64,000 nt of DNA from Deinococcus sp. (GCA_965261005.1 OZ253376.1:1-64000), one strand, 5' to 3'; shown: positions 15,782 to 38,185, counted from the stretch's first letter. The notes: generated by a model not told the origin, from the sequence alone. Numbers and translations are program-made.

Positions 15782-15819
15782 CTTAGCCTACGAAGACGTC
15801 CTGCTCGTGTCGGCTCCCC
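15782..15819 (-). mobile_element. 38-bp Tn3-family terminal inverted repeat (right end)
   Basis: GGGGAGCCGACACGAGCAGGACGTCTTCGTAGGCTAAG fits the 38-bp GGGG...TAAG pattern just after tnpA. Confidence 0.85.
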
Positions 15820-16290
15820 AGGTGGGGGAAGCGTCCCGGCACCCTCTACATTCGCTTTGCCCACGAAATGAACGGGTCTTGGGAGCCGTGGGCCGTGAAC
15901 ACGAACAACGACCAAGACTTCACCACCGCCTGGAAGCGCTACCGCAACATCCAAAAAGACGTCTTTCCCAAGGCCAAGCTGGTCTTCAGCGTCAACCGCA
16001 ACTCGGTCGGTTTGGGAATGGACTGGCGCAAGATCTTTCCCAGCAAAGATAACGTGGACGTCATGAGCGTGGACTACTGCAACAACCCGGTGGGGCCGGT
16101 GTGTTCCCAAAGCGATTGGGACGCCTCCATGTCGCAGACCGACGAATACGGCGTGCCCATCGGCCTGGAGCAGCACCGCAAGTTCGCCGACAGCGTGGGG
16201 CTGCCGCTGGCCATCTCCGAATGGTCGGGGAACGCCGCATAGACCGGCGACGCGCCCGCCTTTTTCGAAGGTGCCCAACGCGCACCAACT
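15820..16290 (+). pseudogene. GH26-like glycoside hydrolase, 3' half
   Basis: TLYIRFAHEMNGSW, DVMSVDY and PLAISEW motifs begin right after the Tn3 IR; internal stop at 16240-16242. Confidence 0.8.
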
Positions 16291-16299
16291 CTTCAAAGT

Positions 16300-17733
16300 T
16301 CAGCGCAAGAGACGGGACAACGCCCCCAGCAGCGACAAAGCCGGCGCCGGCCACACGCCCAGCAGCAGCGTCCCAAGGGTCGTCAGGCCCAGCGCCCAGG
16401 GATAGCCGGGCTGCTGGTGCAGCTTGGTCTCCCCTTCCGGCGCGCGCAGGTACATCTCCACGATGGGGCGCAGGTAGTAGGAGAGGCCGAGCAGCATGTT
16501 GAGGGCGGCGAGGACGGCCAGCCAGGTCAGCCCGCCAGCCAGGGCCACCTGAAGCAGCAGTACCTTGCCCAGAAAGCCGGCCAGCGGGGGAATGCCGGCC
16601 AGCGACAGCAGCGCGAGCGACAGCAGCGCGGCGGTGCCGGGGGCGGTTCTGGACAGGCCGCGCAAATCGCTCAGGGCGCCCGGCCCGCGCGTCCGCTCAA
16701 TCTGCGCGGTCACCGCGAAGGCGGCCAAGTTCATACAGGTGTAGGCGGCCAGGTAGTAGCCCGCCGCCGCCAAGGCGCCCTCCACCCGGCCGGCCACCGC
16801 CACGGCGATCAGGATGTAGCCCGCCTGCGCGATGCTGGAGTAGGCCAGCAGCCGCTTGAGGCCGCTTTGGCGCAGGGCCGCCAGGTTGCCCAGCAGCATG
16901 GTAACGGCGGCGAGGACGGCGATCAGCACCGGCCAGCCCGCCAGCCCGCCCGGAAACGCGGAGAGCAGCAAACGCAGCAGCCCCGCGAAGCCCGCGATCT
17001 TGGGGAGCACCGAGATCAGGCCGGTCACGGGCGCGCTGGCCCCGGCGTACACGTCGGGCGCCCAGAAGTGAAAGGGGACGGCGGTGACCTCGAAGGCGTA
17101 GCCGACCAGCACCAGCGAGAGCGCCGCCCAGACCCACACCGCGTCCGCCCCGACCAGCGCCGCGCCGATGGTCCGCAGCTCCAAGCTGCCGGTCAGGCCG
17201 TACAAAAAGGCCAGGCCGTAGGCCATCACCGCCAAGGCGACCGCCCCGTAGATGAAGTACTTGAGGGTCGCCTCGTTGGCCCGCTTCCCACCGCGCACCA
17301 AGCCCACCAGCAAATAAGAGGCGGTGCTGAGCATCTGCAAGAACAGCACGATCAAACCGAGGTCGAGGCTGCCCGCCAGCCCCACCCCGCCCAGGGTGGC
17401 GAAGGTCAGGGCCACCGGGGCGTGCGGCTCGGCGTCCCGCCCGTGAAAGTAGGCGGAGATGGGCAGCAGGGCCAGCAGCGCCGAACCGATGATCAGCAGC
17501 TTGAAGACGCTTCCGAAGCCGTCCAGGGCGTAGGTGCCGCAGAAGACCGCCTGATCGGGCAGGGCCAGGCTGTGAGCCGCGAGAATCAGCGCCGCGACCA
17601 GCCCGCCGGCGGCGAAGGTGGACGGCAGGGCGCGCCACTTGCCGCGCACCAGCCCCGCCAGCGGCACCAGCAGCAGACAGGTGAGGCCGAGGGCCAGTTC
17701 CGGGCCGATGGCCCACAAATCGAGGCAGTTCAC
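16300..17733 (-). CDS. nuoN: NuoN-like antiporter-type membrane subunit
   Basis: EATLKYFIYG, PFHFWAPDVY, LKRLLAYSSIAQAGY and GIPPLAGFLGK. Confidence 0.88.
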   Translation of the reverse strand: MNCLDLWAIGPELALGLTCLLLVPLAGLVRGKWRALPSTFAAGGLVAALILAAHSLALPDQAVFCGTYALDGFGSVFKLLIIGSALLALLPISAYFHGRDAEPHAPVALTFATLGGVGLAGSLDLGLIVLFLQMLSTASYLLVGLVRGGKRANEATLKYFIYGAVALAVMAYGLAFLYGLTGSLELRTIGAALVGADAVWVWAALSLVLVGYAFEVTAVPFHFWAPDVYAGASAPVTGLISVLPKIAGFAGLLRLLLSAFPGGLAGWPVLIAVLAAVTMLLGNLAALRQSGLKRLLAYSSIAQAGYILIAVAVAGRVEGALAAAGYYLAAYTCMNLAAFAVTAQIERTRGPGALSDLRGLSRTAPGTAALLSLALLSLAGIPPLAGFLGKVLLLQVALAGGLTWLAVLAALNMLLGLSYYLRPIVEMYLRAPEGETKLHQQPGYPWALGLTTLGTLLLGVWPAPALSLLGALSRLLR

Positions 17734-17734
17734 C

Positions 17735-19239
17735 TCAGCGCCCCAAGCTCGCCAGCACCGCCGCCGTTCCCTCGACCACCCGCAGCAGCGTGGCCGGCAG
17801 AATCCCCAGCAGCAGCGAGAGGGCCGCCAGCGGCACGGTCGCCCACAGCTCGTGGGCGTTCAAGTCCTTGATGGAGCGCAAATCGCTTGGCCGCTCGCCC
17901 ATCAGGACGTTCGAGAGGACGCGCAGGTACAGCCCGGTCGAGATGAGCAGGCCGACCACGGCGGCCAGCGCCAGCCACACGCTGACGCTCACGGTCGCCG
18001 CGATCACCTGGAACTCGGCCACGAAGCCCGACAAACCTGGCAGCCCCAGCGAGCCGAAGGCGAACAGGCCCAGCAAGCCACCGTAGCGCCGCAGGTTCAG
18101 CAGCCCGCCGAACTTGTCCAGGTCGCGCGTCCCGGTGCGGTGCTGCAAGACGCCGACCAGAAAGAACATGCCCCCCGTCAGCAGGCCGTGGCTGACCATC
18201 TGAAGGGCGGCGCCGTTCAGGGCGAGCTGCCGCACGGCCGCGTCGGCGCTGAGGCCCCAGACGCCCGCCGCCAGCATCACGTAGCCCATGTGGTTGATGG
18301 AGGTGTAGGCGACCAACCGCTTGAGATCGCGCTGCGCCAAGGCCGCCAGGGCGCCGTAAATCAGGGAGACGATCCCCAGGGCGGTCAAGAGCCAGCCATA
18401 CCTTTGCACCGTCCCCGGCATCAGCGGCAACAGGATGTGCAGCAAACCGAAGGCGCCCATCTTGAGCTGCGCGCCCGCCAGCATCACGCTGCCCTCGGTG
18501 GGGGCCTTGACGTGCGCGTCGGGCAGCCAGTTGTGCAGCGGCACGGTCGGCAGCTTGACGCCGAAGCCGATCAGGAGGCCCAGCATCACCCAAAAGGCCG
18601 CCGCCGTCCCCGCGTAGGGCTGCGCCGCCTGAACGGCCGCGATGGAGAAGCTGTGCGCCGCCGCGCCAGAACTTGATGAACCTAGGCCGGGCGTGCCCAG
18701 GTACAGCGCCAAAAAGGAGAGCAGCATCGCCAAGCTGCCCGCCCGGGTGTACAGAAAGAACTTGAGGGCCGCGTACCTGCGCCCCTCGCCGCCCCAGATG
18801 CCGACGATGAAGTACATCGGCACCAGGGCGATTTCAAAGAAGAGGTAGAACAGCAGCAAGTCCTGCGAGGAGAACAGCCCGATCAAGCCGGTGCCCATCA
18901 GCAGGAACAAAAAGGCGTGCTCCTTGACGCGCTCGCGCTCCGGCAGCACGTAGACCATCACCAGGGTCAGCAGCAGCGCGCTCAGCACGATCATGGCGAG
19001 GCCGACGCCGCCCAGCCGACGTCGTAGCTGGCGCCGATGGAGGGAATCCAACTGAGGGTGGTGCGCGCCTGCACAGAGCCTGTTCCCGCGTCAAAGCTGG
19101 CCCATAGCCACAGGCCCGACAAGAGCGTAAGGGCCGAGCCTACAAGGGCCGTCCAGCGCAGCAGCGCCGGGCGCGAGGCGGGCAGGGCCAGGATCAAGAG
19201 GCCGGTGAGGAGGGGCAAAAAGATGGTCAGGTTGAGCAC
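17735..19239 (-). pseudogene. nuoM: NuoM-like subunit with a 1-nt frameshift near 19016 (pseudogene or sequencing error)
   Basis: N-terminus VLNLTIFLPL...SYDVG in one frame; FFEIAL, KLPTVPLHNWLPDAH and GFVAEF in another. Confidence 0.85.
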
Positions 19240-19257
19240 GTGGTCTCCAGGAAAAAT

Positions 19258-19348
19258 GGGGTGTGGGATGCGGGTTGTAGGGTGTGGGAAAAGGTGCGGG
19301 GCAAGGGTTCGCCCTTCTTCACAACCCACACCCCACGTTCCACACCCC
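19258..19348. repeat. Heptamer-based G-rich/C-rich inverted repeat between nuoL and nuoM
   Basis: GGGGTGTGGG...GGGTGTGGG opposed by CCCACACCCC...CCACACCCC. Confidence 0.6.
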
Positions 19349-19354
19349 GTCCTT

Positions 19355-21325
19355 TCAGCGCCACAACATCGCCCCCAACGTCGCCGCCAGGACCCAGGCG
19401 AAGATGGCGAGGGTATAGAGGTAGACCTTGCCGCTCTCCAAGCCGCGCAAGCGTTGCCCCAGATTGCCGATCCAGCTTGCCAGCCTATCGGTCCCGAAGG
19501 CGAAGCCGCCCTCCTCGGCGCGGGCGCTCAGGTGCGCGCCGGAAAGGGTCAAATCGGCGACGGCCCGGCCGGAGGCGTCGAGGGCAGCTTCCGAACGCTG
19601 GACCCCGCCGCCCGAACGCAGCGCGGCGCGGCCGATGCCCCTCGCCCCACCGTCGAGCGCGCCCTCGGCGGTGTTCACGTCGCCGCTCAGGGCGAGGGCG
19701 GCGCGGCCCAGCCACCTGGCGGCCGCGTCAAAGCCGTTCTCAACGCTTTGCAAAAGGCGGGACGAGGCCATCGCCGCGTGCGCCGTGCCGACGGTCAAGC
19801 CTTCCAGCGCGGCCCCGAGAGCGCGCGGCCAGCCGCCAAGGGCGGGCGCGGCGCCCAGCCGAGCCGCCCGCACGCCGCCCCAAGCGAGACCCAGCAGGCT
19901 CGCGGCAATCGCGCCCAGGCGCCAGGGAAGCGGGACTTCCGGCGCCCCCGGAAAGGGCAGCACGCCGCCCAGCACCCCCCCGAACAGCGCGAGCACGGCC
20001 AGCGCCAAACCGGGCCAGCTCATCAGGGGGCCGACCTCGTGCGCCTTGGCATTTTCTTTTCTCGGCCAGAAGGTCGCCACGCCCGCCCGCGCGATGTAGG
20101 TGCCCGCCAAAAAGACCAGCAGCAGCATCAGGAGGCCCGTCCAAAGGCCGTTCTGGACCGCCCGTCCCAGGATGGCCTCCTCGCTGAAGTACGCCCCGAA
20201 GGGCGGAAGGCCGGTTAGCGTCAAGCCGGCGAGGGCGAAGGTCGCCGCCGTGCGGGGCATGGTCCGGCCCAGCCCGCCCAGCTTCCACATGTCCAGCGTG
20301 CCCGCCGCGTGCTGCACCGCCCCGGCGGATAAAAACAGCGCCGACTTGAACAGCGCGTGGACGCCCAAATGGAAGGCCGCCGCGAACGGCCCGCCCAGGC
20401 CGTAGGCGAAGAACATCTCGCCCAGCTGCGACACGGTGGACCAGGCCAGCACCCGCTTGAGGTCCGTTTGAACGGTGGCGACCAGCGCCGAGAACAGCGC
20501 GGTCAAACCGCCCACCCAGGCGACCGAGGCAAGCACGGCGGGGGCGGCGGCGAACAGAGGCTCCAGCCGCAGCAGCAGGTACACGCCCGCCGCCACCATC
20601 GTGGCCGAGTGCAGCAGCGCCGAGACAGGGGTCGGGCCAACCATCGCGCTGGGGAGCCAGGCGGACAGGGGCAGCTGCGCGCTCTTGCCGACGGCGCCGA
20701 TGAGAAAGAGGGCGGCCAGCAGGGTCAGCGTCGCGGCCGGGATGGTGTTCAGGTTGCCCAGCAAGGCGCCGATGTCGCTCGTCCCGGTGAGCCTCAGCGC
20801 CAGCAGCCAGCCCAGCAGCAAACCCACATCGCCAATCCTCGTCATCAAAAAGGCGCGCAGGGCCGCCTTGCGCGCGCCCTGCTGATCGTAGTGAAAGCCG
20901 ATCAAGAGGTACGACGCCAGCCCCACCCCCTCCCAGGCCGCGAACAAGAGGGCGAAGGAGTTGGCGAGAACCAGGGTCAGCATCGCCCCCAGGAAAAAGG
21001 CGAGCGTGGCGAAAAAACGCGGCCCCCCCTCCTCCCCGCGCAGATAGCCGACCGCGTAGACGCTTACCAGCAAACCCACGCCGGCGACCAGAAAGGCCAG
21101 CAGCTTGGAGAGGCCGTCGAGGGAGAGGCCCACGGTCAACTGGAAACCGGCGCTCTCGAACCAATTGCCTGAAAAGGCCGGGGTTCCACGGCCGATCAGC
21201 AGCAGGGCCAGCAGCGAGAGGCCGACGCCGAGCAGGTTCAGCCAGCCGGCGTGCTTTTTGAAGGGGACGATGACCAGGGACGCGGTGAGCGGCGCGAGCG
21301 GGACGGCCAGCAGCAGGGCGCTCAT
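19355..21325 (-). CDS. nuoL: NuoL-like antiporter-type membrane subunit
   Basis: WEGVGLASY, GKSAQLPL, PTPVSALLHSATMV and HALFKS motifs; start overlaps the nuoK stop. Confidence 0.88.
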   Translation of the reverse strand: MSALLLAVPLAPLTASLVIVPFKKHAGWLNLLGVGLSLLALLLIGRGTPAFSGNWFESAGFQLTVGLSLDGLSKLLAFLVAGVGLLVSVYAVGYLRGEEGGPRFFATLAFFLGAMLTLVLANSFALLFAAWEGVGLASYLLIGFHYDQQGARKAALRAFLMTRIGDVGLLLGWLLALRLTGTSDIGALLGNLNTIPAATLTLLAALFLIGAVGKSAQLPLSAWLPSAMVGPTPVSALLHSATMVAAGVYLLLRLEPLFAAAPAVLASVAWVGGLTALFSALVATVQTDLKRVLAWSTVSQLGEMFFAYGLGGPFAAAFHLGVHALFKSALFLSAGAVQHAAGTLDMWKLGGLGRTMPRTAATFALAGLTLTGLPPFGAYFSEEAILGRAVQNGLWTGLLMLLLVFLAGTYIARAGVATFWPRKENAKAHEVGPLMSWPGLALAVLALFGGVLGGVLPFPGAPEVPLPWRLGAIAASLLGLAWGGVRAARLGAAPALGGWPRALGAALEGLTVGTAHAAMASSRLLQSVENGFDAAARWLGRAALALSGDVNTAEGALDGGARGIGRAALRSGGGVQRSEAALDASGRAVADLTLSGAHLSARAEEGGFAFGTDRLASWIGNLGQRLRGLESGKVYLYTLAIFAWVLAATLGAMLWR

Positions 21326-21627
21326 CCCCTCAGGTCCTGGTAGTCGTCCACCTGCTGGCTTTGGCGGTTGCGGTAGAGCAGCATCATGATGGCGAGGCCC
21401 ACGGCCATCTCGATGGCGCCGACCGTCACGATCAGGATGGTGAAGATCTGCCCGCTGTAGTCGCCCGGCCGCACGAAGCGCCAAAAGGCGATCAGGTTCA
21501 GGCCGGTGGCATTCAGCAGCACCTCCACGCCCATCAGGACCATCACCGCCGAGCGCTGCGCGACCACCGTATAGATGCCGACGCCGAACAGGATGGCCGC
21601 CACGACCAAGTAGGCTGTCAGGTTCAT
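21322..21627 (-). CDS. nuoK: NuoK-like subunit
   Basis: Three TM helices with MGVEVLLN and AIEMAVGLAI. Confidence 0.9.
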   Translation of the reverse strand: MNLTAYLVVAAILFGVGIYTVVAQRSAVMVLMGVEVLLNATGLNLIAFWRFVRPGDYSGQIFTILIVTVGAIEMAVGLAIMMLLYRNRQSQQVDDYQDLRG

Positions 21628-22361
21628 GCGCCCACCGCTTCTTTGTCGGGTTCAGAAACCTCGATGGGCGTGGGGTTCTCGTCGGCGGTCACCAAGGCCG
21701 CGCGGTCCTCCTCCGAGGGGTGGCTGCCGGGGCGCTGGAGCATCACCGCGCCGAAGATGCCCAGCAGGATCAGCAAACCGGCGCCCTCGAAGGCCATCAT
21801 GTATTTGCCCATCAGGAGCGTGCCGACCTGCCGCGCCGGGTCGGGGTCGGGGGTCGCCAAGCTCTGCGGCCAGCTTGGGCGCCACAGCAGCAAAAAGACC
21901 AGCGCGGCGCCCACCAGGATGCCGAGAACCGCCGCCCAGGGCCGCGCGGGCGTCACCATGCTCATGTCCATGCCGCCCATGTCCGAGTCGCCGTGGTCCA
22001 TGCCGGGGTGGTCCATCTCGCCTTGTTGTTGATCGTCTTTCGGCTTCAGCCCCAAGCTGAACAGCCGCTCGACGGGCGACATCTGCATGCCGGCCATCAT
22101 GGCGCCGCCGGGGTCCACCGAGAACAGCAGCATGAACAGGATCATCACCAGCATCCCGCCGATGTACATCATCACTTGCAGCAGGCCGATCAAGTCGGCC
22201 GACAGCAGGATGAACAGCCCCGCCACGCCGATGAAAGACGACATCAAAAAGATGCCGCTGCGGAACATGCTCATGGTGGTCGCCATGCCCAGGGCGCCCA
22301 GCACGGCGATCAGGGAAAACAGGCCGAAGGCGGCCCACTGCACCCCCAAGTTGAGCGTCAT
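21624..22361 (-). CDS. nuoJ: NuoJ-like subunit with a Met/His-rich loop
   Basis: LQVMMYIGGMLVMILF and AFEGAGLLIL; insert EMDHPGMDHGDSDMGGMDMSM. Confidence 0.85.
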   Translation of the reverse strand: MTLNLGVQWAAFGLFSLIAVLGALGMATTMSMFRSGIFLMSSFIGVAGLFILLSADLIGLLQVMMYIGGMLVMILFMLLFSVDPGGAMMAGMQMSPVERLFSLGLKPKDDQQQGEMDHPGMDHGDSDMGGMDMSMVTPARPWAAVLGILVGAALVFLLLWRPSWPQSLATPDPDPARQVGTLLMGKYMMAFEGAGLLILLGIFGAVMLQRPGSHPSEEDRAALVTADENPTPIEVSEPDKEAVGA

Positions 22362-23242
22362 TGCGGCCCCACCCCCAGGAGAATCAAAGCGCCGACCAGC
22401 AGCACGTTCAACAATCCGGCGGGAATCAGGACGCGCCAAGCCAGTTTGAGCATTTGCGCGGTGCTGAGGGGCTTCACCAGCTTGCCCAGCCACAACATCA
22501 GGGCCATCAGGGCGAAGGTCTTGAGCAGCATCCAGAGGGGGGCGGGCAGCCACGGTCCCAGCCAGCCGCCCAGGTACAGCAGCGCGCCCATCGCCGCGAC
22601 CACGAACAAGAGGCCCGCCAGCGCCGCGCGCCATGCCAGCGCCTTCCAGCCGCCGACCGCGCCCAGAACGCCGCCGCCGATCTCCTGTGAAAATGGCTCG
22701 GAAAAGGGGGCGCGGTACGCCTGCATCAGGCCGGTGACGACGTACAGCGCGAAGCCGAGGGGTTGCAGAAGGGCGAACCACAGCCCCGACTGCGCCTCGA
22801 CGATGCGGACGGTCGAAAGCGAGGCCGCCATCATCAGCGCGCCCACGTAGGCGAGGCCGAGCGGAACCACGTAAGAAACCAGCTGCGCCGTGACGCGGTA
22901 AAAGCCCTCGACCGCGTTTCTGGTGCCCGCGCCCCAACCGCTCAGGGCCACGCCCAGCACCACGAAGTCCACCACCACGATGAAGTAAAAGGCGCCGATG
23001 CCCAGATCAGAGCCGATCAGGCGCGGGCCGAAGGGCAGCACGGCCGCCGCCAGCGTCACGCCGAACAGGGCGCTGAGGGGGCCGGCCGGGTACAGCCAGC
23101 GGTCGGCGTGCGGCAGGGCCACATCCTCGCGGGGGGTGTGGCCGACGGGCGGCGAAAGGGCCAGCTCCAGCCAGAGGGTCAGCGCCACGCCGACGGCCAA
23201 AGTCAGCAGCGTGAACAGCGCCCCGCCCCAACTGTTCAGCAC
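22358..23242 (-). CDS. nuoH: NuoH-like subunit, N-terminally shortened
   Basis: AQLVSYVVPL, SLSTVRIVEAQ, LQPLGF, RAPF and YLGGW; GTG overlaps the nuoA stop. Confidence 0.8.
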   Translation of the reverse strand: MLNSWGGALFTLLTLAVGVALTLWLELALSPPVGHTPREDVALPHADRWLYPAGPLSALFGVTLAAAVLPFGPRLIGSDLGIGAFYFIVVVDFVVLGVALSGWGAGTRNAVEGFYRVTAQLVSYVVPLGLAYVGALMMAASLSTVRIVEAQSGLWFALLQPLGFALYVVTGLMQAYRAPFSEPFSQEIGGGVLGAVGGWKALAWRAALAGLLFVVAAMGALLYLGGWLGPWLPAPLWMLLKTFALMALMLWLGKLVKPLSTAQMLKLAWRVLIPAGLLNVLLVGALILLGVGPQ

Positions 23243-23559
23243 TACTCCCACTCTAGCCCGCCCATACGCCAGGCGTAGGCCAGCCCGGCCAGCAAAATGG
23301 CGATAAAGACCAGCATGTCGAAAAAGGCTTCCAGGCCGATGCCCCGGAACACGACCGCCCACGGGTACATGAAGATCATCTCCATGTCAAAGGCGAGAAA
23401 GATCAGCGCGAAGGTGGGGTAGCCGAAGCGGTATTGCTTCCAGGCGGCGGGCAGCTCGAGTTTCTTGACCTTGGGCCGCCACACGGCGACCAGCAAGAGG
23501 GCCAGCCCCAGCATGAGCAGGGCGGCCAAGCCGACGGCGGCGTACATGCTGACGATCAT
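23242..23559 (-). CDS. nuoA: NuoA-like subunit
   Basis: FALIFLAFDMEMIFMYPW and AYAWRMGGLEW. Confidence 0.88.
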   Translation of the reverse strand: MIVSMYAAVGLAALLMLGLALLLVAVWRPKVKKLELPAAWKQYRFGYPTFALIFLAFDMEMIFMYPWAVVFRGIGLEAFFDMLVFIAILLAGLAYAWRMGGLEWE

Positions 23560-23593
23560 GCAAGACCTCGTAGGACGCGAAGCTTATGTTTTT

Positions 23594-23899
23594 TCAGGTG
23601 TACTTGAAGACTTCCATCAGCTCGTCCACGATCTCCTGCTCGTCGCCGCGTGCGCTGGCGGTGGCGACGTGCGCCTCCAAATGGCCGCGCAGCACCACGC
23701 CGGCCGCTCCCGTGAGGGCGCCCTGCACGGCCTTGAGCTGGCGCAACACGTCCACGCAGTAGGCGTGCGGGTCTTCGAGCTGGCGCTGAATGCTCTCCAG
23801 GTGGCCCCGCGCGATGGCGAGGCGTCGGGCCGCCTTTTTGCGGGCGTCCTCGGGCATGCAGAGGTGGTGTTCTCCGGCGGCGGCCGTCTCACCCTCCAT
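23594..23899 (-). CDS. csoR: CsoR-family copper-sensing repressor
   Basis: RRLAIARGHL, YCVDVLRQLKAV and GHLEAH (Cys-His-His type). Confidence 0.9.
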   Translation of the reverse strand: MEGETAAAGEHHLCMPEDARKKAARRLAIARGHLESIQRQLEDPHAYCVDVLRQLKAVQGALTGAAGVVLRGHLEAHVATASARGDEQEIVDELMEVFKYT

Positions 23900-24108
23900 T
23901 ACAGGTGGGCGATTCGCGCGCTGTACCCCTCTTCCGCCACGGCGTTGATGAGTTGCTGGGGGTCGAGATTGCCCTCTACGACGGCCTTGCCGCTTTTCAA
24001 ATCCACTTGGGCGTCCGTCACGCCGGGCACGCTCCTCAGGGCCTTGGTCACGGCAGTTTGGCAGTGGCCGCAGGTCATGCCGGAAACGTCGAGTTCGGTT
24101 GTATTCAT
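23899..24108 (-). CDS. copZ: CopZ copper chaperone
   Basis: GMTCGHC HMA motif; GGAGG RBS. Confidence 0.93.
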   Translation of the reverse strand: MNTTELDVSGMTCGHCQTAVTKALRSVPGVTDAQVDLKSGKAVVEGNLDPQQLINAVAEEGYSARIAHL

Positions 24109-24130
24109 GGGTCTTCCTCCGAAGGCAAAT

Positions 24131-24230
24131 CTACACCCACCCTGGGAGGAGTCAGCATAAATTGTGCCAGATGACTTCCTTAACGAGCTTTTCATTCTCC
24201 ATTTTGCCATCCACCCGGGGGGGAATGGGA
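24131..24230. promoter_or_regulatory. Putative CsoR operators upstream of copZ-csoR-nuo
   Basis: C-tract/G-tract pseudo-palindromes ACACCCACCCTGGGAGGAGT and CCATCCACCCGGGGGGGAATGG, like those at copA. Confidence 0.55.
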
Positions 24231-24461
24231 TAAACGTTGCGCCCGCACCTCCACGTTCGAGCGCGGCCCCGTGGCCGGCTGGACGCTGATCCTAAGCCCG
24301 ACCCCGGAAGGCGAGGTGCGGCAGCTCGGCTGAGCAAGAACCCATAAACCGGGTACCACGCTTGCTCCTCGTGACGTGTGGTCCCTACAGGCGCCAGAAG
24401 AATTCTTTTGAACGTGGGCCACGGCCGAGACCAGGTCGGCCGTGGTCACGAAGTACGCCGC

Positions 24462-25883
24462 CTACGGCAAACGGTAGGCATAGACAGCACCTTGGCCCAT
24501 GCCGAACTTGCTGGGCAGGCCGGCGCTGAAGTACAGCGTGTTGCCCACCACGCTGAGCGGCGCGCTGATCGAGCCGTGCGCCGAGCTGGTCCACACCTTT
24601 TGCCCGTCCGAGGCGCGGTAGCCGCGAATCTTGCCGTCGAGCGTCCCCACCAGGTACACATCGTTCGAGAGAAAGCCCGCCGTGGTCGTTCCCGCCGGCT
24701 GCGCCTTGAGGTCGGTCCACTTGGCCGTTCCCGTCGCGGGGTCGAGCGCCTTGATGGTGATGGGGTGCTGCGCGGGGTCGAGGTCATAGTTGTATGAGTT
24801 GTTGCTCCACACGTAGATGGTGGCGTCCGGTCCCACCGCCGCCTCCGCGTGGATGCCGCCGCCCTTGCTTCCGTAACCCACCGCCGTCTTCCAGACCAGC
24901 GCGCCCGTCTGCCTATCGAAGGCCCAGTAAATGCCGCTCTTGGAGCCGCCGCCCACCAATTGTTTCATCTGGCCGTTCACGTTCGCCGTAAACAGCTGCG
25001 GCCCCGCGCCGAAGTCGTAGTCCGGCCCGACCGGCTTGGCGGCCAGCCACAAGTCGTTGTTGAAGGTCTGCGTCACCCACTTGGTTTGGCCGCTGCGGGC
25101 GCCTACCGCGACCATCGCGTCCTCCATCTCGCCCGGCGCGCCGTTGTAGCTGTTGCCGGTCGTGAAGAACAGGGTGTCGCTGGCGGGGTCGAGGGCGAAG
25201 GAACTCCACATCGAGGTGCCGTTCTTGTCAGGGGTGGTCAGGTACTTTTCCCAGACGGTATTTCCCGTGCTGGTGTTGAGGGCCACCACCCGGCCGCGCG
25301 AGGTCGCCGTGTAAGGCTTGCCCATCTTTTCCATCATGCCGGAGATCGGCTCGTCCACCGAGGAGACGCCGATGTACGCCAGGCCGTCGGCCGGGTTGAC
25401 CAGCAGGTGGCTGACGCTGCCGGCGTACTGGTCCTGCGGGGCGAAGTCGGTCTTCCACAGCAGCTTGCCCGTATTCTTGTCGAGGGCGAAGGCGTAGCCC
25501 TCGACGCTGGCGACGATGTAGGCGTTCTCCGTCAGGGCGCCGGTGCCAGCGAAGCCATGCCAAGGCCATTCCTTGACCGGCGTCTCCAGCTTGGTCTTCC
25601 ACAGCTGCTTGCCCGTCTGGGCGTCGAGGGCGTAGGCGTTGCCGGCCCAATCGGCCACGAAAACCTTATTGCCGTCGAGTAAGGGCGTAGCAGAAACCTC
25701 GGCGCCCGGCCTGAAGCTCCAGGCCAGCTGCAAGCGCGACACGTTCTGGGTGTTCAGGGCCGTGCTGTCGCTGGCGTGGTCGTTGACAAACTCGTGGTTC
25801 GGCGCCGTCTGCGCCACGGCGAGCGGCGCAGTCAGCAGGGCCAGGCTGACGAGGTGGGCGGGGGTAAATCGAATGTGCTTCAT
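24462..25883 (-). CDS. Secreted PQQ-type beta-propeller protein (PVA-dehydrogenase-like)
   Basis: Signal peptide; repeated ALDxxTGKxxW tryptophan-docking motifs; TGNSY and DYDFG. Confidence 0.85.
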   Translation of the reverse strand: MKHIRFTPAHLVSLALLTAPLAVAQTAPNHEFVNDHASDSTALNTQNVSRLQLAWSFRPGAEVSATPLLDGNKVFVADWAGNAYALDAQTGKQLWKTKLETPVKEWPWHGFAGTGALTENAYIVASVEGYAFALDKNTGKLLWKTDFAPQDQYAGSVSHLLVNPADGLAYIGVSSVDEPISGMMEKMGKPYTATSRGRVVALNTSTGNTVWEKYLTTPDKNGTSMWSSFALDPASDTLFFTTGNSYNGAPGEMEDAMVAVGARSGQTKWVTQTFNNDLWLAAKPVGPDYDFGAGPQLFTANVNGQMKQLVGGGSKSGIYWAFDRQTGALVWKTAVGYGSKGGGIHAEAAVGPDATIYVWSNNSYNYDLDPAQHPITIKALDPATGTAKWTDLKAQPAGTTTAGFLSNDVYLVGTLDGKIRGYRASDGQKVWTSSAHGSISAPLSVVGNTLYFSAGLPSKFGMGQGAVYAYRLP

Positions 25884-25947: not shown

Positions 25948-26664
25948 TCAGTTCATGCGCCCCTGATTGGGCATCTGCTGAGCGGCGTCCTGGCCGATGC
26001 GCTCCAGCACCGGGCGCCGCGCGAGAATGATCAGGCCGAACCCGACCTTGGCCAGCAAATCGAGAATGGTGTAGAGGGCCGCCTGGGCGCCCTGACCGAT
26101 CAGCGCGAAACCCGCCGTGCCGAGAATCCACACCACCGGGTAGCCGATCCACAGGGCGGCGTTCATGTCGCGCAGGGTGGTGAACAGGCGCCGCTGATCC
26201 TCAGGACGGCCCTGCGCCTTTACGGTGAGGTCGCGGTACAGCAAAGCCAGCACGGCCAGAAAGCCCAGGCAGCTCACCGCGTACCAGATGTAGTTGGTCG
26301 GCTTGCTCGAAAGCTCGGCGATGGCCCCGGTGCCGATCATGAACACGTCTGACAACACCAGCGACAAGGTCAGGCTGGGCGGGGCGTGCACGCTGCGCGC
26401 GATCTGGCTGAGCAGCAGCGGCGTGGTCAATCCCCAGGTGACGTAACGAATCCAGGCGACCGGTCGGCCGTCCAGGGTGACCTCCCCCTGCCCGAGGGCC
26501 AGCATCAGGTACAGCGCCATGGCGATCAAGGGAACGGCGAACAGGCCCACGAGCGACTGCTTGGTGTACTCGTTGGTGGGGCGCAGGGTCTGGGTATAGA
26601 AGTAGAGCACGCCGAGCAACATGCCAAAAAAGCCGATCCAGCGCCACAAGGTCACCGCGTCCAT
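25948..26664 (-). CDS. Microbial (type 1) rhodopsin with a TTQ helix-C motif, probable anion pump
   Basis: Seven TM; RYVTWGLTTPLLLSQ, WIGYPVVW and DLLAKVGFG (retinal Lys). Confidence 0.93.
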   Translation of the reverse strand: MDAVTLWRWIGFFGMLLGVLYFYTQTLRPTNEYTKQSLVGLFAVPLIAMALYLMLALGQGEVTLDGRPVAWIRYVTWGLTTPLLLSQIARSVHAPPSLTLSLVLSDVFMIGTGAIAELSSKPTNYIWYAVSCLGFLAVLALLYRDLTVKAQGRPEDQRRLFTTLRDMNAALWIGYPVVWILGTAGFALIGQGAQAALYTILDLLAKVGFGLIILARRPVLERIGQDAAQQMPNQGRMN

Positions 26665-27073: not shown

Positions 27074-27091
27074 GAGGGAGAGGTGAACATT

Positions 27092-27700
27092 ATGCGAACG
27101 GCTGTTTTTACGACCCTGCTCCTGAGCGCCGTCCTGGTCTCTCCCGTCTCAGCCCAGATGAACTCAGCACAGATGAACCACGACACCATGAACATGCCGC
27201 AAAGCATGCCCGGCATGACCCACACGGGAACGGAGGCCAAGGACCTCGCGCAGCTGAAGGGCAAAGCCTTCGACCGCGCCTTTTTGTCCATGATGGTCGT
27301 CCATCATCAGGGCGCCATCGACATGAGCAAGGCCGTCGTCAACAACGTGAGGGACGCCCAGGTCAAGATGTGGGCGAACGACATCATCAAGGTTCAGCAA
27401 CAGGAGATCGGCCAGATGAACACCTGGCTCAGGGCACTCGGCGGCCCCGACAAGAGCGCGCAAAGCGGCATGGCGGGCGAGATGAACACCATGCTCGCGG
27501 TTCTCAAGCGGGACAAGGACAGCGACCGCGCCTTGGTCACGGGCATGTTGCCCCACCACGCCAGCGCGATAGAAATGGCCCGCGTCGCCCTGCAAAACAG
27601 CGACGACGCCCGAATCCTGGGACTCGCCCGTGAAATCATCCGTACCCAGGCCGACGAGATGTACGCCTACCGCCAGTGGCTGCTGAAAAGGGGAAGCTGA
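27092..27700 (+). CDS. DUF305 (CopM-like) exported metal-binding protein
   Basis: Signal peptide, Met/His-rich N-terminus, MVVHHQGAIDM and MLPHHASAIEM. Confidence 0.9.
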   Translation: MRTAVFTTLLLSAVLVSPVSAQMNSAQMNHDTMNMPQSMPGMTHTGTEAKDLAQLKGKAFDRAFLSMMVVHHQGAIDMSKAVVNNVRDAQVKMWANDIIKVQQQEIGQMNTWLRALGGPDKSAQSGMAGEMNTMLAVLKRDKDSDRALVTGMLPHHASAIEMARVALQNSDDARILGLAREIIRTQADEMYAYRQWLLKRGS

Positions 27701-27800
27701 GATTTGCAGAGAGCAGAGAGCCAAAGACAGACGCCCTATGCTCTCTGCGCTGTGGCCTCTGTCAACCCCACCCACCTACTGGTGATCTAGTAAACCCCAC

Positions 27801-28463
27801 ATGGCCCAGATCCTGATTGTGGACGACGATCCCGCCATTCTCGAAATTTTGCGCGCGTACCTGCTCAGCGAGGGCCACGGCGTGTTGGAGGCGGCGAGCG
27901 GCGACGGGGCGCGTGAACTCCTGCCGCGTGCGGACCTCGCCATTCTCGACTGGATGCTGCCGGGCGCGAGCGGCCTGGACCTGGCCCGCGAGGCGCGGGG
28001 CGTCGGGCTGGAACTGCCCATCCTGATGCTGACCGCGCGCGGCGAGGAGGCCGACGTGCTGCACGGCTTGGAGGGCGGCGTGGACGACTACGTGATCAAG
28101 CCCTTCAGCCCGCGCGAGGTCATGGCGCGGGTGCGGACCTTGCTGCGGCGGGTCGGCGTGCGGCACACGCTGACCAGCGGCGGGCTGTTCCTCGACGTGC
28201 GCGCCCGCCGGGCCACGCTGAACGGGCGGCCCCTTGAGCTTTCCAAGTTGGAATACGACCTGCTGACCACGCTCGCGCAACATCCCGGTCTGGCTTGGAG
28301 CCGTGAACGGCTGCTGGAACGGGTGTGGGGTGATGTTCCCGGCACCTCACGGGTGGTGGACGTGCACATCACGGGGCTGCGCAAAAAGCTCGGCGACGAT
28401 CCCGAACAGCCCCGCTACATCGAGACCGTGCGCGGTGTCGGCTACCGCTTCAGGGACGCGTGA
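27801..28463 (+). CDS. OmpR-family response regulator
   Basis: VDDD, LDWMLPG, KPF and ETVRGVGY. Confidence 0.95.
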   Translation: MAQILIVDDDPAILEILRAYLLSEGHGVLEAASGDGARELLPRADLAILDWMLPGASGLDLAREARGVGLELPILMLTARGEEADVLHGLEGGVDDYVIKPFSPREVMARVRTLLRRVGVRHTLTSGGLFLDVRARRATLNGRPLELSKLEYDLLTTLAQHPGLAWSRERLLERVWGDVPGTSRVVDVHITGLRKKLGDDPEQPRYIETVRGVGYRFRDA

Positions 28464-29470
28464 AGCTCTATGCCCGGCTGTTCCTGTCGCACCTGCTGGT
28501 CATTCTGGTCGCGCTCGGGGCGGTGCTGCTGCTCGCCGAGCTGCTGTCGCCCGCCTTTGTGCGCCACCACGTCGAGCAGATGGTGGCCCTGATCGGCCCC
28601 AGGGGCGCCGGGCTGCGCCCGGACCTTGAGCGCGGCGTGCGCGCGACCCTCACCTCGGTGCTGCTGGCGGCCGTGCCGCTCGCGCTGCTCGCCTCCGCCG
28701 TCACGGCCCTCTACTCCGCCCGCCGGGTGGTGGCGGGCGTGGCGCTGCTGCGCGACGGCAGCCACGCCATCGCCGCCGGCGACTACCGGCGGCGCCTACC
28801 CGAAGCGGGGCGCGTCGAGCTGATCTCCACCGTCGCCCACGAACTCAGGACGCCGCTCTCGACACTGCGCGGCTACGCCGAGGCGATGCGCGACGGCGTG
28901 CTGGCGCCCGAAATCGCCTCAGGCGCCATCGTGCGCGAGACGGCCGCGATGGAGCGGCTGGCACGCGACCTGAGCTTGGTGTCGCGCGTCGAGGCGGGCG
29001 CAGTCGAGCTGCACCTAACGGACTTCGCGCCGGGGGCGCTGCTCAGAACGGCCGTGGAGCGTTTTGGCAGCGCCTACGAGGAAAAGGGCGTGAGGCTGAG
29101 CGTGCAGGCTTCGGAACCCTTGCCGCACGTCACCGCCGACTTCGAGCGGGCCTCGCAGGTGCTCGCCAACCTGCTCGGCAACGCCCTGCGCCACACACCA
29201 TCAGAAGGTCAGGTCACCCTCAGCGCACATCTCATTCATGGCTCGGTCGCCTTTGGGGTGCGAGACAGCGGTGGGGGCATTGCGCCCGAACACCTGGGGC
29301 GGGTCTTCGAGCGCTTTTACCGCGTAGACCCCGCCCGCACGCGCGGCGAGGGCAGCGGGGTCGGCCTCACCATCGCGCGCGGCCTCGCCGATCGCATGGG
29401 CGGCGCGCTCACGGCCACCTCCGGCCCGGAAGGCAGCGCCTTTACCTTCACGCTGCTGGCGGCGCACTGA
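28460..29470 (+). CDS. Sensor histidine kinase with a partly deleted HAMP domain
   Basis: Two TM; RHHVEQM sensor loop; AHELRTPL, NLLGNA, DSGGGI and GVGL. Confidence 0.9.
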   Translation: MKLYARLFLSHLLVILVALGAVLLLAELLSPAFVRHHVEQMVALIGPRGAGLRPDLERGVRATLTSVLLAAVPLALLASAVTALYSARRVVAGVALLRDGSHAIAAGDYRRRLPEAGRVELISTVAHELRTPLSTLRGYAEAMRDGVLAPEIASGAIVRETAAMERLARDLSLVSRVEAGAVELHLTDFAPGALLRTAVERFGSAYEEKGVRLSVQASEPLPHVTADFERASQVLANLLGNALRHTPSEGQVTLSAHLIHGSVAFGVRDSGGGIAPEHLGRVFERFYRVDPARTRGEGSGVGLTIARGLADRMGGALTATSGPEGSAFTFTLLAAH

Positions 29471-29503
29471 TACGATTTCCGGTCGTCTGGCTCGAAAAGA
29501 GGC

Positions 29504-29524
29504 GGGCCGGAGTCGCTCCGGCCC
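29504..29524. terminator. Hairpin between convergent genes
   Basis: GGGCCGGAG-TCG-CTCCGGCCC. Confidence 0.5.
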
Positions 29525-29551
29525 ACAGGGGTCACGGGTATCTTCAGGCGC

Positions 29552-29974
29552 TCAGTTCATGACGCTCAGCAATTGCTGGCAGGCCTGCTCGCAGCGGTGG
29601 CACGACTCGGCGCACACGCCGCAGTGCGCGTGGTGCCCCTTGTGCTTCTCGCACTCGGCGCCGCAGGCTTGGCAAGCGGTCAGGCAGGACTGCAACTGGG
29701 CGCGCAGCACGGTCATGTCCGGCTCGGTCTGGCGAACCAGGGTGCGCCCGGTCGTGGTGCAGATGTCGGCGCAGTCGAGGTTGAGCCGGATGCAGTGGAT
29801 CACCATCTGCACGTCGCTTTCGGCGAGGCAGGCGTCGGCGCAGGAGGTGCAGACTTGGGCGCACTCGAAGCAGGCGTCGATGCACTCCTGGAGCGCCTGC
29901 CGGTTCTGAATCTGGGCGCCATTCGGGTGGGTGTCGAGCATGCGGCTCACGGCCTGGGTGGTAGGACTGGTCAT
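29552..29974 (-). CDS. Four-helix-bundle Cys-rich copper storage protein (Csp3/DUF326-like)
   Basis: Repeated CxxC and CxxxC (CAQVCTSCADACL, CQACGAEC, CAESCHRCEQAC). Confidence 0.9.
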   Translation of the reverse strand: MTSPTTQAVSRMLDTHPNGAQIQNRQALQECIDACFECAQVCTSCADACLAESDVQMVIHCIRLNLDCADICTTTGRTLVRQTEPDMTVLRAQLQSCLTACQACGAECEKHKGHHAHCGVCAESCHRCEQACQQLLSVMN

Positions 29975-30047
29975 GGTGATCTCCTTAAAAGGTCGAGAAG
30001 CGTGGGTCGAAAGGACTACGAACGGCAGGCTACACGAACCTCACCTC

Positions 30048-31292: not shown

Positions 31293-31293
31293 G

Positions 31294-35524: not shown

Positions 35525-35658
35525 ATACCCACCCCACGGGGGTGTCAAGGAATTCGCTTATAAAAGCTTTACCAGTCGTGTTATCCCCTGCTCAAGTTCG
35601 CCAAGGCAGTGAAGAAAGGCTATACTGAAAGCATAATTTACCCCCCTGGGGGGGATAA
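35525..35658. promoter_or_regulatory. Divergent copZ/copA promoter with two CsoR-type operators
   Basis: ATACCCACCCCACGGGGGTGT and TTACCCCCCTGGGGGGGATAA. Confidence 0.7.
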
Positions 35659-35671
35659 GTGGAGGTTTGGG

Positions 35672-38185
35672 ATGCTGAAGACTATAGAACTCGGCGTGGG
35701 GGGGATGACCTGCGCCTCGTGCGTGGGGCGGGTGGAGCGGGGGCTGAAGAAGGTAGAGGGGGTCGAGGGGGCCAGCGTCAACCTCGCCACCGAGCGCGCG
35801 ACCGTCACCTATGACCCGGAACAAGTCGAACCGAGCGTTTTGCTCGACAAGGTGCGGGACGTGGGCTACGAGCCGCGGGTGGGCGAAATCGAGTTGGGCG
35901 TCCAGGGCATGACCTGCGCCAGCTGCGTGGCCCGGGTCGAGCGCGCCCTGGGGAAGGTGGACGGCGTGCTGTCTGCCGGCGTCAACTTGGCGACCGAGCG
36001 CGCGACCGTCACGTACCTGCCGGCCAGCGTGAGCGCGGGGCAGCTGAGGGCGGCGGTGCGTGAAGCCGGCCATGAGGTGCTGGAAGATCAGGCGGGCACG
36101 GACCGCAGCGACCAGGAGCGCGCCGCGCGCGAGGAGGAGCTGGCCCGCCTGCGCCGCTCGGTGCTCTTCAGCGCCGTCTTCGCCGTGCCGCTGCTGATCC
36201 TGGCGATGCTGCCGATGCTCTACGCGCCACTGGAAACGGCGCTGACGGCCCGCCTGGGGCCGGGCCTGATGTGGATCATGCTGGCCCTGGCCGTCCCGGT
36301 GCAGTTCGGCCCCGGCTTACGCTTTTACCGCCTGGGCTGGAAGAGCCTCGTTCACCGCTCACCCGACATGAACAGCCTGGTCATGATCGGCACCAGCGCG
36401 GCGTTCTTCTATTCCCTCGTCGTCACCGTGGCGCCCGGCCTCTTCCCTGCCGGCACGGCGCACGTCTATTACGAGGCCAGCGCGGTCGTCATCACGCTGA
36501 TTCTGCTGGGCAAGTACTTCGAGGCCATCGCCAAGGGGCGCAGCAGCGAGGCCATGAAGAAGCTACTGGGCTTGCAGGCGAGAACCGCGCGGGTACTCAG
36601 GAACGGTCAGGAGTTGGAGCTGCCCACCGACGAGGTCCTGGTCGGCGATTTGATCGCGGTGCGGCCCGGCGAGAAGATTCCGGTGGACGGCCGGGTCATG
36701 GGCGGCAACAGCTTCGTGGACGAGAGCATGATCACGGGCGAGCCGGTGCCCGTGAAGAAGCAGGCTGGGGCAAAGGTGGTCGGCGGCACCATCAACCAGA
36801 ACGGCGCCCTCCAGTTCGAGGCGACCAAGGTCGGCGCGGACACGGCGTTAGCGCAAATCATCAAGCTGGTCGAGACCGCGCAAGGCAGCAAGCCGCCGAT
36901 TCAGGGCTTGGCGGACAGGGTGGTGGCGGTCTTCGTTCCGGTCGTGCTGGGCGTCGCGGCGCTCACCTTCGTGCTGTGGCTGATCTTCGGTGGGGCTTCA
37001 GCGCTTTCCTTCGCGCTCGTGACCACGGTGGCGGTCCTGATCATCGCCTGCCCGTGTGCGATGGGATTGGCAACGCCGACCAGCGCGATGGTGGGCACCG
37101 GCAAGGCCGCCGAGTTGGGCGTGCTGTTCAAGGGGGGCGCGGCGCTCGAAAGCTTGCAAGGGCTGGACGTGATCGCCTTTGATAAGACCGGCACCTTGAC
37201 CGAGGGCAAGCCGACGCTGACCGACTTCGGGTTGGCCCCTGGCTTTGACCGCGCCGAGGTCCTGAAGCTGGTCGCCGCCGCCGAGGGGCAGAGCGAACAT
37301 CCCATCGCCCGCGCCATCGTGGACGCCGCGAAGAAAGAGGGCGTCCAGCTCCTGACGCCGGAAAGCTTCGAGGCTGTGCCGGGCTTTGGGCTGGAGGCGC
37401 GGGTGGACGGTCGGCTGGTGCGGGTGGGCGCCGACCGCTACATGAAGAAGCTCGGTTTAAGCGTGGACGAATTCGCCGCGCAAGCCGCTCAGCTCGGCGA
37501 CGGGGGCAAGAGTCCCCTCTACGCCGCCGTGGACGGGCGGCTCGCGGCCGTTCTGGCGGTGGCCGACCCGATCAAGGAGGGATCTATCGAGGCGGTGCGG
37601 GCGCTGCACCGGCAGGGCCTCAGGGTCGCCATGATCACCGGGGACAACCAAAGGACCGCCCACGCCATTGCAAGCCAACTGGACATTGACACGGTGCTGG
37701 CTGAGGTCTTGCCGGGGGGCAAGAGCGACGCCGTGAAAGAACTTCAGGGTCAGGGCAACAAGGTGGGCTTTGTCGGCGACGGCATCAACGACGCGCCGGC
37801 CCTGGCGCAATCGGACGTGGGCCTTGCCATCGGCACCGGCACCGACGTGGCCGTCGAGACGGCGGACGTGGTGCTGATGTCGGGCGACTTGCGCGGCGTG
37901 CCGAACGCCCTCGCGCTCTCACGGGCGACCCTGCGCAACATCAAGCTGAATTTGGTGTGGGCCTTTGGCTACAACATCATTCTGATTCCGGTGGCGGCGG
38001 GCGCGCTGTACCCGGCCCTCGGCTGGCTGCTCTCCCCCGTGCTGGCAGCGGCGGCGATGGGGTTTTCGAGCGTCTTCGTCCTCAGCAACGCGCTCAGGCT
38101 CAGGGGCTTTCGGCCCCCGCTCGGCTTTGGACCCGCTTCCAAGGCGTCCAAAGAAGGTGGCGCGCCTTCGGCGGCGCGCGCCTGA
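35672..38185 (+). CDS. copA: Cu(I)-exporting P1B-1 ATPase
   Basis: Two GMTCASC, TGE, CPC, DKTGT, GDGIND, YN and MGFSS motifs. Confidence 0.96.

Follow-up and report, generated by a model that had tools for sequence, protein, structure and literature searches.

The copZ-csoR-nuo' operon

The first 64 kb of the second replicon (C2, 311,557 bp) of a Deinococcus sp. genome of 3.27 Mb and 67% G+C (GCA_965261005.1, OZ253376.1:1-64000) were analyzed and are referred to here as the window. Its genes have their closest relatives in Deinococcus. Between positions 16300 and 24108 the minus strand carries one tightly coupled operon, copZ-csoR-nuoA'-H'-J'-K'-L'-M'-N', in which two metal-related genes precede homologs of the membrane-arm subunits of complex I. 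Gene identities were assigned by Pfam searches. The leading gene copZ (23899..24108) encodes a 69-aa HMA copper chaperone with an MTCGHC motif (Pfam HMA, 2.1e-17), its start being picked by a GGAGGA ribosome-binding site, and csoR (23594..23899; PF02583, 9e-21) encodes a metal-sensing repressor with a Cys..His..His pattern. They are followed by nuoA' (23242..23559; Oxidored_q4, 105 aa, with a shortened loop between transmembrane segments (TM) 1 and 2), nuoH' (22358..23242; NADHdh, 294 aa), nuoJ' (21624..22361; Oxidored_q3, 245 aa) and nuoK' (21322..21627; Oxidored_q2, 101 aa). The last three genes all belong to Proton_antipo_M and comprise nuoL' (19355..21325; 656 aa, antiporter-like, with the C-terminal extension kept), nuoM' (17735..19239; antiporter-like) and nuoN' (16300..17733; 477 aa).

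The copZ stop codon overlaps the csoR ATG, and csoR and nuoA' are separated by 34 nt. The TAG of nuoA' overlaps the GTG of nuoH', and the H'/J', J'/K' and K'/L' junctions are 4-nt overlaps of the ATGA type. All genes overlap by 1-4 nt or follow each other at a short distance, and the operon has no room for nuoB-G and nuoI. A preliminary description of this DNA had reported the co-orientation of the nine genes with overlaps or short gaps, the nuoA/nuoH and nuoH/nuoJ overlaps and the absence of nuoB-G and nuoI from their usual positions, all of which were confirmed by the Pfam assignments and the inspection of the junctions. A complete nuoA-N operon is present on the chromosome (C1:119541-134000) and holds the sole NuoD of the genome.

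In the database record nuoM' is split into two frames near 19000-19015 by a 1-nt deletion behind 19014, which the preliminary description did not mention. A contig from the public run X1 carries one extra G behind 19014 at a depth of 45 and is otherwise identical over 16000-24097; with this G, nuoM' reads through and yields an intact 501-aa product. Since, moreover, both halves of nuoM' share one frame in all relatives, the break is a record error or a private variant and not a sign of decay. Similar single-base errors may be present in other genes of the assembly. Directly downstream of nuoN' lies a fragment of a Tn3-family transposase (14288-15751, plus strand; DDE domain 4.9e-139, without the N-terminal part), which marks a mobile-element boundary. 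The frameshift in the record and this fragment are the two observations that would fit a decaying remnant of a duplicated nuo operon.

Two candidate CsoR operators were found upstream of copZ on the minus strand. The first (24208..24229) is a C-tract/G-tract pseudo-palindrome, and the second (24134..24155) is a pseudo-palindrome located between a -35-like CTGACT and a -10-like TGTAGAT. The second candidate is nearly identical to a site before a second copZ gene of the window (35523-35549) and resembles sites before copZ at three related loci of the family described below (L004, L024 and L040), to which the first candidate is comparable as well. Both were found by eye and with a C3..G3 pattern; an inverted-repeat scan missed them, their arms being short and imperfect. 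These candidates agree with the CsoR-type operators that had been described upstream of the operon. The csoR gene is the only CsoR-family gene of the genome (single genomic match). The best match of its product in the PDB is 3aai, the 'copper homeostasis operon regulatory protein' of Thermus (2e-27), with which it shares the Cys and H-x3-H; CsoR of M. tuberculosis (2hh7) has H-x3-C at positions in register. The operon is therefore predicted to be under CsoR control. Generic scans of 15800-24500 found no sigma-70 promoter and 8 terminator-like matches, which is the expectation for shuffled sequence (mean 7.8). The spacer between nuoL' and nuoM' (19240..19354, minus strand) contains a long, GC-rich hairpin followed by AUUUUU (-54.3 kcal/mol, z -3.4), which may act as an attenuator within the operon, affect processing or stability, or represent a REP-like repeat.

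A widespread seven-gene module

A 90%-clustered protein collection contained 476 relatives of NuoH' of about 298 aa, which are 65-80% identical across named Deinococcus, Alphaproteobacteria and Noviherbaspirillum. A scan of genomes, with one genome per species, gave 56 close loci (NuoH' 53-81% identical) and 24 distant ones (33-38%), and their gene content was determined by tblastn with the window proteins and the chromosomal Nuo proteins as queries. All 56 close loci have A'-H'-J'-K'-L'-M'-N' in identical order on one strand, as far as the contigs reach, and none of them has a canonical NuoB, C, D, E, F, G or I within 10 kb. The same queries detected the head subunits at the 24 distant loci, which are normal nuoA-N operons with, in most cases, the label Solirubrobacterales; the sensitivity of the queries was hence sufficient. 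As the seven-gene pattern recurs in the same order at all 56 loci where the contig allows, it is far beyond chance.

Judged from record titles and the tree, the module is present in at least nine phyla (Deinococcota, Pseudomonadota, Chloroflexota, Actinomycetota, Cyanobacteriota, Verrucomicrobiota, Vulcanimicrobiota, Ignavibacteriota and Thermodesulfobacteriota). A quick IQ-TREE phylogeny unites 41 dereplicated NuoH' sequences in a single clade (SH-aLRT 100), the stem of which measures 0.8 changes per column. The distribution is patchy, the module being present in one of four genomes of the genus and 11 of 364 genomes of the phylum to which the window belongs. Among 72,556 PLSDB plasmid records, three carry it at E<=1e-40, including a conjugative plasmid from Rhodopseudomonas. 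The ratio of non-synonymous to synonymous substitution rates (dN/dS) was 0.09-0.27 for all seven genes against three relatives (19 usable comparisons); two comparisons of nuoN' were left out, the one with L004 because its dN of 2.64 is at odds with a protein identity of 83% and must be an artefact of the alignment, and the one with L034 because of a stop codon. The module is thus a conserved, mobile, plasmid-borne seven-gene unit under purifying selection.

These results also settle the question, raised in the preliminary description, whether homologs normally keep nuoBCDI and the window merely holds a decayed operon: none of the 56 loci keeps them. With a frameshift that is absent from the independent assembly, seven intact genes in at least nine phyla and the low dN/dS values, the decay of a duplicated nuo operon was rejected and is hardly conceivable as an explanation.

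Two further loci represent a sister subfamily (L085:2478-9450 and L086:1913-8752), the NuoH of which is 37-41% identical. Both have the same arm-only seven-gene layout and Met-rich A, J and K subunits. L085 has an HMBD domain in the NuoJ loop and a CDF gene downstream, and at L086 genes for YtkA-like and PCYCGC-motif proteins lie downstream. Deinococcus marmoris and D. saxicola each have two copies of the whole module on separate contigs (L005/L006 and L007/L008; genomes G044 and G068), which are preceded by genes for a C39-like peptidase, a DUF326 and a DUF305 protein.

Altered subunits of the membrane arm

To compare residues, 32-42 dereplicated family members were aligned column by column with 10-25 canonical sequences; positions in NuoH' are given in the numbering of the chromosomal protein. 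NuoH' has kept its fold and aligns to E. coli NuoH 71-321 (E 1.4e-33). Where canonical chromosomal NuoH reads NRTPFDLPEAEQEL, NuoH' reads YRAPFSEPFSQE, with PFDLPEAE replaced by PFSEPFSQ. Throughout the family E161 is changed to V, E211 to Q, E221 to F, and E246 and E249 to L, while D218, E225 and E233 are replaced by varying residues. In addition, R301 is changed to G, R306 to P, R308 to S and D310 to A. The loop R34-K67 behind TM1 is missing, the loop after the conserved Glu of TM1 being about 25-35 residues shorter. The replacements are mostly apolar, and by this alignment hardly any of the invariant charged residues of the quinone cavity and the E-channel survive in NuoH'. NuoA' has lost the loop between TM1 and TM2 with the K and the Y-E-S/C-G motif and has retained the Asp and Glu of TM2. 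In complex I, the quinone site is formed by NuoB, NuoD and NuoI together with loops of NuoH and NuoA.

The absence of the N-terminal loop and of FDLPEAE from NuoH had been seen in the preliminary description and holds against the chromosomal NuoH, the loss being family-wide; likewise the missing YECG loop of NuoA was recovered in the family alignment. Because the quinone-site and E-channel residues of NuoH' and the NuoA' loop are lost throughout the family, the complex is very probably no respiratory dehydrogenase, in agreement with the earlier suggestion. Very probably it acts as a membrane complex on its own.

The loop between TM3 and TM4 of NuoJ' contains an insert rich in His, Met and Asp (21957..22046, minus strand; ..MDHPGMDHGDSDMGGMDMSM..). 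An insert at this place is present in all 50 full-length NuoJ' homologs out of 53 translated (the genes of L023, L052 and L054 did not read through). It varies in length, is rich in His, Met, Asp, Glu and Gly, and nearly always ends in G-M-D-M-S-M-(V/T)-T-P or a close variant. Among 40 dereplicated members the variable part, as delimited for this count, has 6-170 residues (median 54), of which His makes up 14%, Met 10%, Asp 14%, Glu 9% and Gly 19%. In L012 and in the sister-subfamily locus L085 it contains the Pfam domain HMBD (PF19335, E 4e-14, above the curated cut-off). The solved cyanobacterial NdhG aligns with NuoJ' through its residues 11-79 and 99-169, which correspond to NuoJ' residues 11-79 and 142-213, so that NuoJ' has 62 residues where NdhG has 19. 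The insert is a predicted metal-binding loop. Following the positive-inside pattern, homology and the topology of complex I, it should be cytoplasmic and lie on the face where the peripheral arm docks.

One alternative is that the module provides a second membrane arm for the chromosomal NuoBCDEFGI head, forming another complex I isoform under copper stress. Cyanobacterial NDH-1 is known to swap membrane subunits, and a canonical NuoD is encoded elsewhere in all six host genomes tested, i.e. the window genome and five of five others. Host genomes without NuoD were sought and none was found among these five other hosts, a count that does not discriminate for independence from a head. Against such an isoform, the surfaces for docking and for the quinone site are gone, as the N-terminal loop, the acidic residues of the TM5-6 loop and R301/R306/R308/D310 of NuoH' and the TM1-2 loop of NuoA' are all affected. 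Furthermore, an insert of 20-190 aa fills the NuoJ' loop on the docking face, and the E-channel glutamates of NuoH' are now apolar. This alternative is therefore considered very improbable.

Approximately 23 family-invariant Met residues that are absent from the canonical proteins have been gained in NuoA', NuoJ' and NuoK'. NuoA' has five (M59, 61, 64, 82 and 99), and invariant Met residues flank its D58/E60, TM2 reading F-D-M-E-M-I-F-M. NuoJ' has fifteen and has kept E192, and NuoK' has kept its membrane glutamates E35 and E73, both of which are adjoined by the invariant M29, M32 and M74. The Met content of the family compared to canonical proteins is 5.9 vs 1.9% for A', 8.5 vs 1.4% for J' (insert removed) and 5.3 vs 3.5% for K', and no enrichment over canonical proteins was found in H', L', M' and N'. 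Only subunits that build the E-channel of complex I are thus enriched in Met.

The antiporter-like subunits differ from each other in their key residues. NuoM' retains all four canonical charged residues (Glu/Lys/Lys/Glu). NuoL' retains the TM5 Glu, the TM7 Lys, the TM8 His and K327, and its TM12 Lys is changed to Glu. In NuoN' the TM5 Glu is changed to Gln and the TM7 Lys to Glu in 100% of the members, and the Lys residues of TM8 and TM12 are retained. In the PDB, NuoA', NuoJ' and NuoK' match chains of cyanobacterial and chloroplast NDH-1 (NdhC, NdhG and NdhE) above bacterial Nuo chains, unlike NuoH', the best match of which is E. coli NuoH. The family may have originated near NDH-1-type complexes.

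Copper genes around the module and a proposed function

The flanks of the module were surveyed by Pfam searches with 405 open reading frames of >=90 aa within 7 kb at 46 dereplicated loci, after 11 near-identical loci had been dropped. Copper-related families included CopZ/HMA, CsoR, HMA/HMBD P-type ATPases, multicopper oxidases, CopB, CopC-CopD, CusF, DUF411, DUF326 and DUF305. Other flanking genes belonged to arsenic, CDF, ZnuABC and MerR families, to Na+/H+ exchangers, to fusions of metallo-beta-lactamase (MBL) and rhodanese domains and to type I secretion/MacB-type ABC systems. No flanking family was universal among the family loci, which leaves the seven genes alone as the conserved unit. 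With a panel of 12 fixed copper proteins, the CopA query of which may also catch non-copper P-type ATPases, matches were obtained in the flanks of 23 of 45 dereplicated loci (window excluded), compared to none of the 24 canonical nuo loci. In the window's own genome the base rate of such matches is 37 of 1622 windows of 14 kb (2.3%). This is the co-occurrence of arm-only clusters with copper genes that the preliminary description had recommended to score. Together with the NuoJ' insert and the Met enrichment, it indicates that the link to copper is not confined to this genome. A copZ-csoR pair is located 2.6 kb upstream of the module in L024, and in L004, L005 and L006 csoR lies downstream on the opposite strand, with copZ beside it in L004. 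The annotated order on the conjugative Rhodopseudomonas plasmid is DUF305-A-H-J-K-L-M-N, and its neighbors are a two-component system, a CusA/CzcA RND pump, two CsoR/RcnR-type repressors and DmeF.

We propose that the module is an exporter of Cu(I), and perhaps Ag(I), that is driven by the proton-motive force, i.e. a Cu(I)/H+ antiporter; in our estimate this proposal is as apt to be right as to be wrong. It is based on the lack of a head, the dismantled quinone site, the intact M' and L' subunits, the Met-embedded carboxylates, the changed residue pair of N', the J' loop, the copper genes and the predicted CsoR control. A rise of cytoplasmic Cu(I) would release CsoR from both operators and permit transcription of copZ-csoR-nuo'. 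Cu(I), possibly delivered by CopZ, would then be captured by the His/Met/Asp-rich loop of NuoJ', which includes an HMBD domain in some members. It might pass along the former E-channel, formed by NuoA', NuoJ' and NuoK' with the altered NuoN', where carboxylates are placed amid invariant Met residues. Finally, it would be expelled to the outside against protons entering through the intact M' and L', similar to the proton-motive-force-driven exchange of Mrp. The substrate, the direction of export, the coupling ion and the role of CopZ are all inferred here from sequence features. Slightly more doubtful is the wider proposal that the family constitutes an unrecognised class of metal efflux systems, in which a headless arm acts as a Cu(I)/Ag(I):H+ antiporter with a Met-lined E-channel path and feeding by the NuoJ' loop, spread by plasmids and islands over at least nine phyla. 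The earlier notion of a repurposed antiporter-like complex linked to Cu gains support from the copper neighborhood, the J' insert, the Met enrichment and the candidate operators, on which the predicted function depends.

Several observations weigh against an exporter of copper. No copper-panel gene is present within 10 kb at 22 of 45 loci, and copZ-csoR is fused directly to the module only in the window and in L040. Some modules adjoin arsenic genes (L012, L014 and L031) or CDF/Zn genes (L019, L030 and L031), others Na+/H+ exchangers (L025, L035 and L052). In the window a CopA ATPase is encoded 12 kb from the module, so that the need for a second exporter is not obvious. Loops rich in His and Asp are also present in transporters of Zn, Ni and Co. 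The placement of the NuoJ' loop relies on homology and on complex I topology as generally known, and the canonical set used for comparison is narrow, consisting of the Solirubrobacterales loci and the genome's own operon.

Operons of this type have been reported before. 'Partial NDH-1 operons' comprising nuoA, H, J, K, L, M and N were described in Salinispora (2012) and later in sponge-derived Streptomyces and in Kocuria; in the available parts of these papers they have the same seven-gene content without peripheral-arm genes as the present module, are read as horizontally acquired H+/Na+ pumps for marine adaptation, and have NuoJ annotated as hypothetical (PMC3314556, PMC4018334, PMC6676996, PMC6002675). 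The main text of PMC3314556 contains neither 'copper' nor 'metal'. A 2025 preprint, in the part available, bins such cases as 'Nuo-partial' or 'incomplete' without analysis. Full-text literature searches found no study of an arm-only complex I as a metal system. A cluster look-up of six proteins from the search for relatives returned one generic name, NADH-quinone oxidoreductase subunit H, and no organism. The preliminary description had stated that no characterised system of this type was known, which stands insofar as the module is uncharacterised, but not with regard to its existence, since partial nuoAHJKLMN operons of Salinispora, Streptomyces and Kocuria were on record as putative marine-adaptation genes. 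It is thus already known that arm-only operons exist, and what is new are the family-wide loss of the quinone site, the Met-lined E-channel subunits, the His/Met or HMBD loop, the copper neighborhood and the predicted CsoR control. No named actinomycete isolate was among the NuoH' matches, including those of a search with an actinobacterial NuoH'. A close NuoH' was also lacking in a sample of 400 other Actinomycetota genomes, which yielded only one canonical-like match of 36-38% identity.

The available parts of these reports point in the same direction as another explanation, in which the module is a general Mrp-like Na+/K+/H+ antiporter or a device for pH and proton-motive force that resides in metal and stress islands, the His/Met loop serving in regulation or sensing (PMC3314556, PMC4018334, PMC6676996, PMC6002675). 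The subunit logic matches that of Mrp, M' and L' are intact, and the Na+/H+ exchangers and the roughly half of the loci without a nearby copper gene would be accounted for. On the other hand, a hard cation would not need about 23 invariant Met residues around the carboxylates of A', J' and K', HMBD domains are found inside the J' loop, copper genes are roughly 20-fold above the base rate of the genome, and the operon of the window is under predicted CsoR control. The hosts are, by their record titles, mostly non-marine. We therefore regard a general antiporter as unlikely.

A further explanation keeps metal transport and changes the substrate or the direction, with either export of Zn, Ni, Co or Cd or uptake of copper for cuproenzymes. 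The insert is rich in His and Asp, genes for CDF, ZnuABC, DmeF and RcnR-type repressors are located near some loci, and the Cys-His-His type of CsoR in Thermus also responds to metals other than copper. However, the commonest neighbors are copper-specific (CopZ, multicopper oxidases, CopB, CopCD, CusF and CopM/DUF305). Moreover, Met-rich transmembrane segments together with MDH/MxM repeats characterize Cu(I)/Ag(I) sites, as in CusA, Ctr1 and PcoA/CopA. Uptake of copper is opposed by the predicted regulation, since de-repression of CsoR at high copper fits export. Another metal or the reverse direction is thus quite unlikely.

The proposed Cu(I)/H+ antiporter was compared with known systems. 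It resembles complex I in that all seven proteins match the NuoA/H/J/K/L/M/N Pfam families and can be aligned with solved chains of complex I/NDH-1, the genes follow the nuo order minus B-G and I, and most charges in the transmembrane segments of the antiporter-like subunits are kept. It differs by the lack of a Q or N module at all 56 loci, the loss of the quinone cavity and E-channel of NuoH' and of the NuoA' loop, the Met-rich A', J' and K', the J' insert and the Gln/Glu pair of N'. Like Mrp (CPA3), it would be a redox-independent complex of NuoL/M/N-like and NuoK/J-like subunits exchanging a cation for protons, an activity deduced solely from the absence of a redox module. In contrast to the module, Mrp has MrpE/F/G and an MrpA with a fused MrpB-like domain and lacks a homolog of NuoH or NuoA, and the proposed substrate is a soft metal rather than Na+ or K+. 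No extra conserved gene, such as one for MrpE/F/G, was found beyond the seven at the 56 loci, and each nuo' gene of the operon matches a Nuo Pfam family. Pfam searches revealed no homology of the seven proteins to P1B ATPases, CusCBA RND systems or CopB/CopD; with known copper exporters they share only the HMBD domain, which is found within the J' loop at L012 and L085.

With the copper operon of Thermus, the layout of which we take to be copZ-csoR-copA, the window operon shares the leading copZ-csoR pair, a CsoR whose nearest match is the Thermus protein 3aai, and GC-tract sites that overlap the promoter. It differs by having the seven nuo' genes behind copZ-csoR, with copA 12 kb off behind the second copZ. 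DAB/MpsAB and the Cup modules of cyanobacterial NDH-1MS are, as far as the accounts available to us go, precedents for antiporter-like subunits in a non-respiratory vectorial task; these consist of one NuoL-like subunit or a full NDH-1 with its head, whereas here the whole arm stands alone.

If the proposed function is correct, the module would be a fourth major route of bacterial copper export besides P1B ATPases, RND pumps and CopB/CopD-type proteins, in which copper is exported by the proton gradient through machinery borrowed from respiration. It would also be a mobile metal-resistance determinant that current resistance-gene catalogues would miss. The partial nuoAHJKLMN operons, now annotated as NADH-quinone oxidoreductase subunits, would gain a testable function, and those long read as marine-adaptation genes would need re-interpretation. 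Furthermore, the module would be a natural experiment on what a membrane arm can achieve in the absence of a quinone site and on the residues of the E-channel and of the first antiporter-like subunit that determine ion specificity, and would be directly relevant to the unsolved coupling between the arms of complex I.

Other features of the window lie upstream of the operon, which forms a copper island together with them. A secreted PQQ (pyrroloquinoline quinone)-type beta-propeller is encoded directly upstream of the module (24462-25883, minus strand), as is the case in L004 (7954-9384, 76% identical). Between the copper operon and a copMRS-like operon, a gene of the bacteriorhodopsin family was found (25948-26664, minus strand; Pfam 1.7e-51), which is not present at L004, the closest related locus. 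Helix C of its product reads R-Y-V-T-W-G-L-T-T-P..S-Q, which presumably corresponds, in bacteriorhodopsin numbering, to Thr/Thr/Gln where proton pumps have Asp/Thr/Asp.

The copMRS-like operon (27083..29470, plus strand) encodes a DUF305 protein, a response regulator and a histidine kinase; the copper-binding CopM encoded by copMRS in Synechocystis is, according to the part of the report available, a member of the DUF305 family (PMC4335983). The copMRS-like operon is followed by a gene for a Cys-rich DUF326 protein of the four-helix-bundle type (29552..29974, minus strand), one for a DUF4396 protein (31294-33063), a family that also follows the module in L023, the second copZ (35298-35501, minus strand), which is 76% identical to the first and has the near-consensus candidate operator at 35523-35549, and a gene for a CopA-type P1B ATPase with two HMA domains (35609..38185, plus strand). 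A Mn catalase and a glutaredoxin are also encoded in this copper island (27083-38185).

In deltaproteobacterial and other genomes, six modules (L020, L021, L022, L011, L024 and L055) are flanked by MBL-rhodanese or rhodanese genes, sulfur-transport genes and HlyD-ABC-MacB genes, which hints at a connection to sulfur or persulfide.

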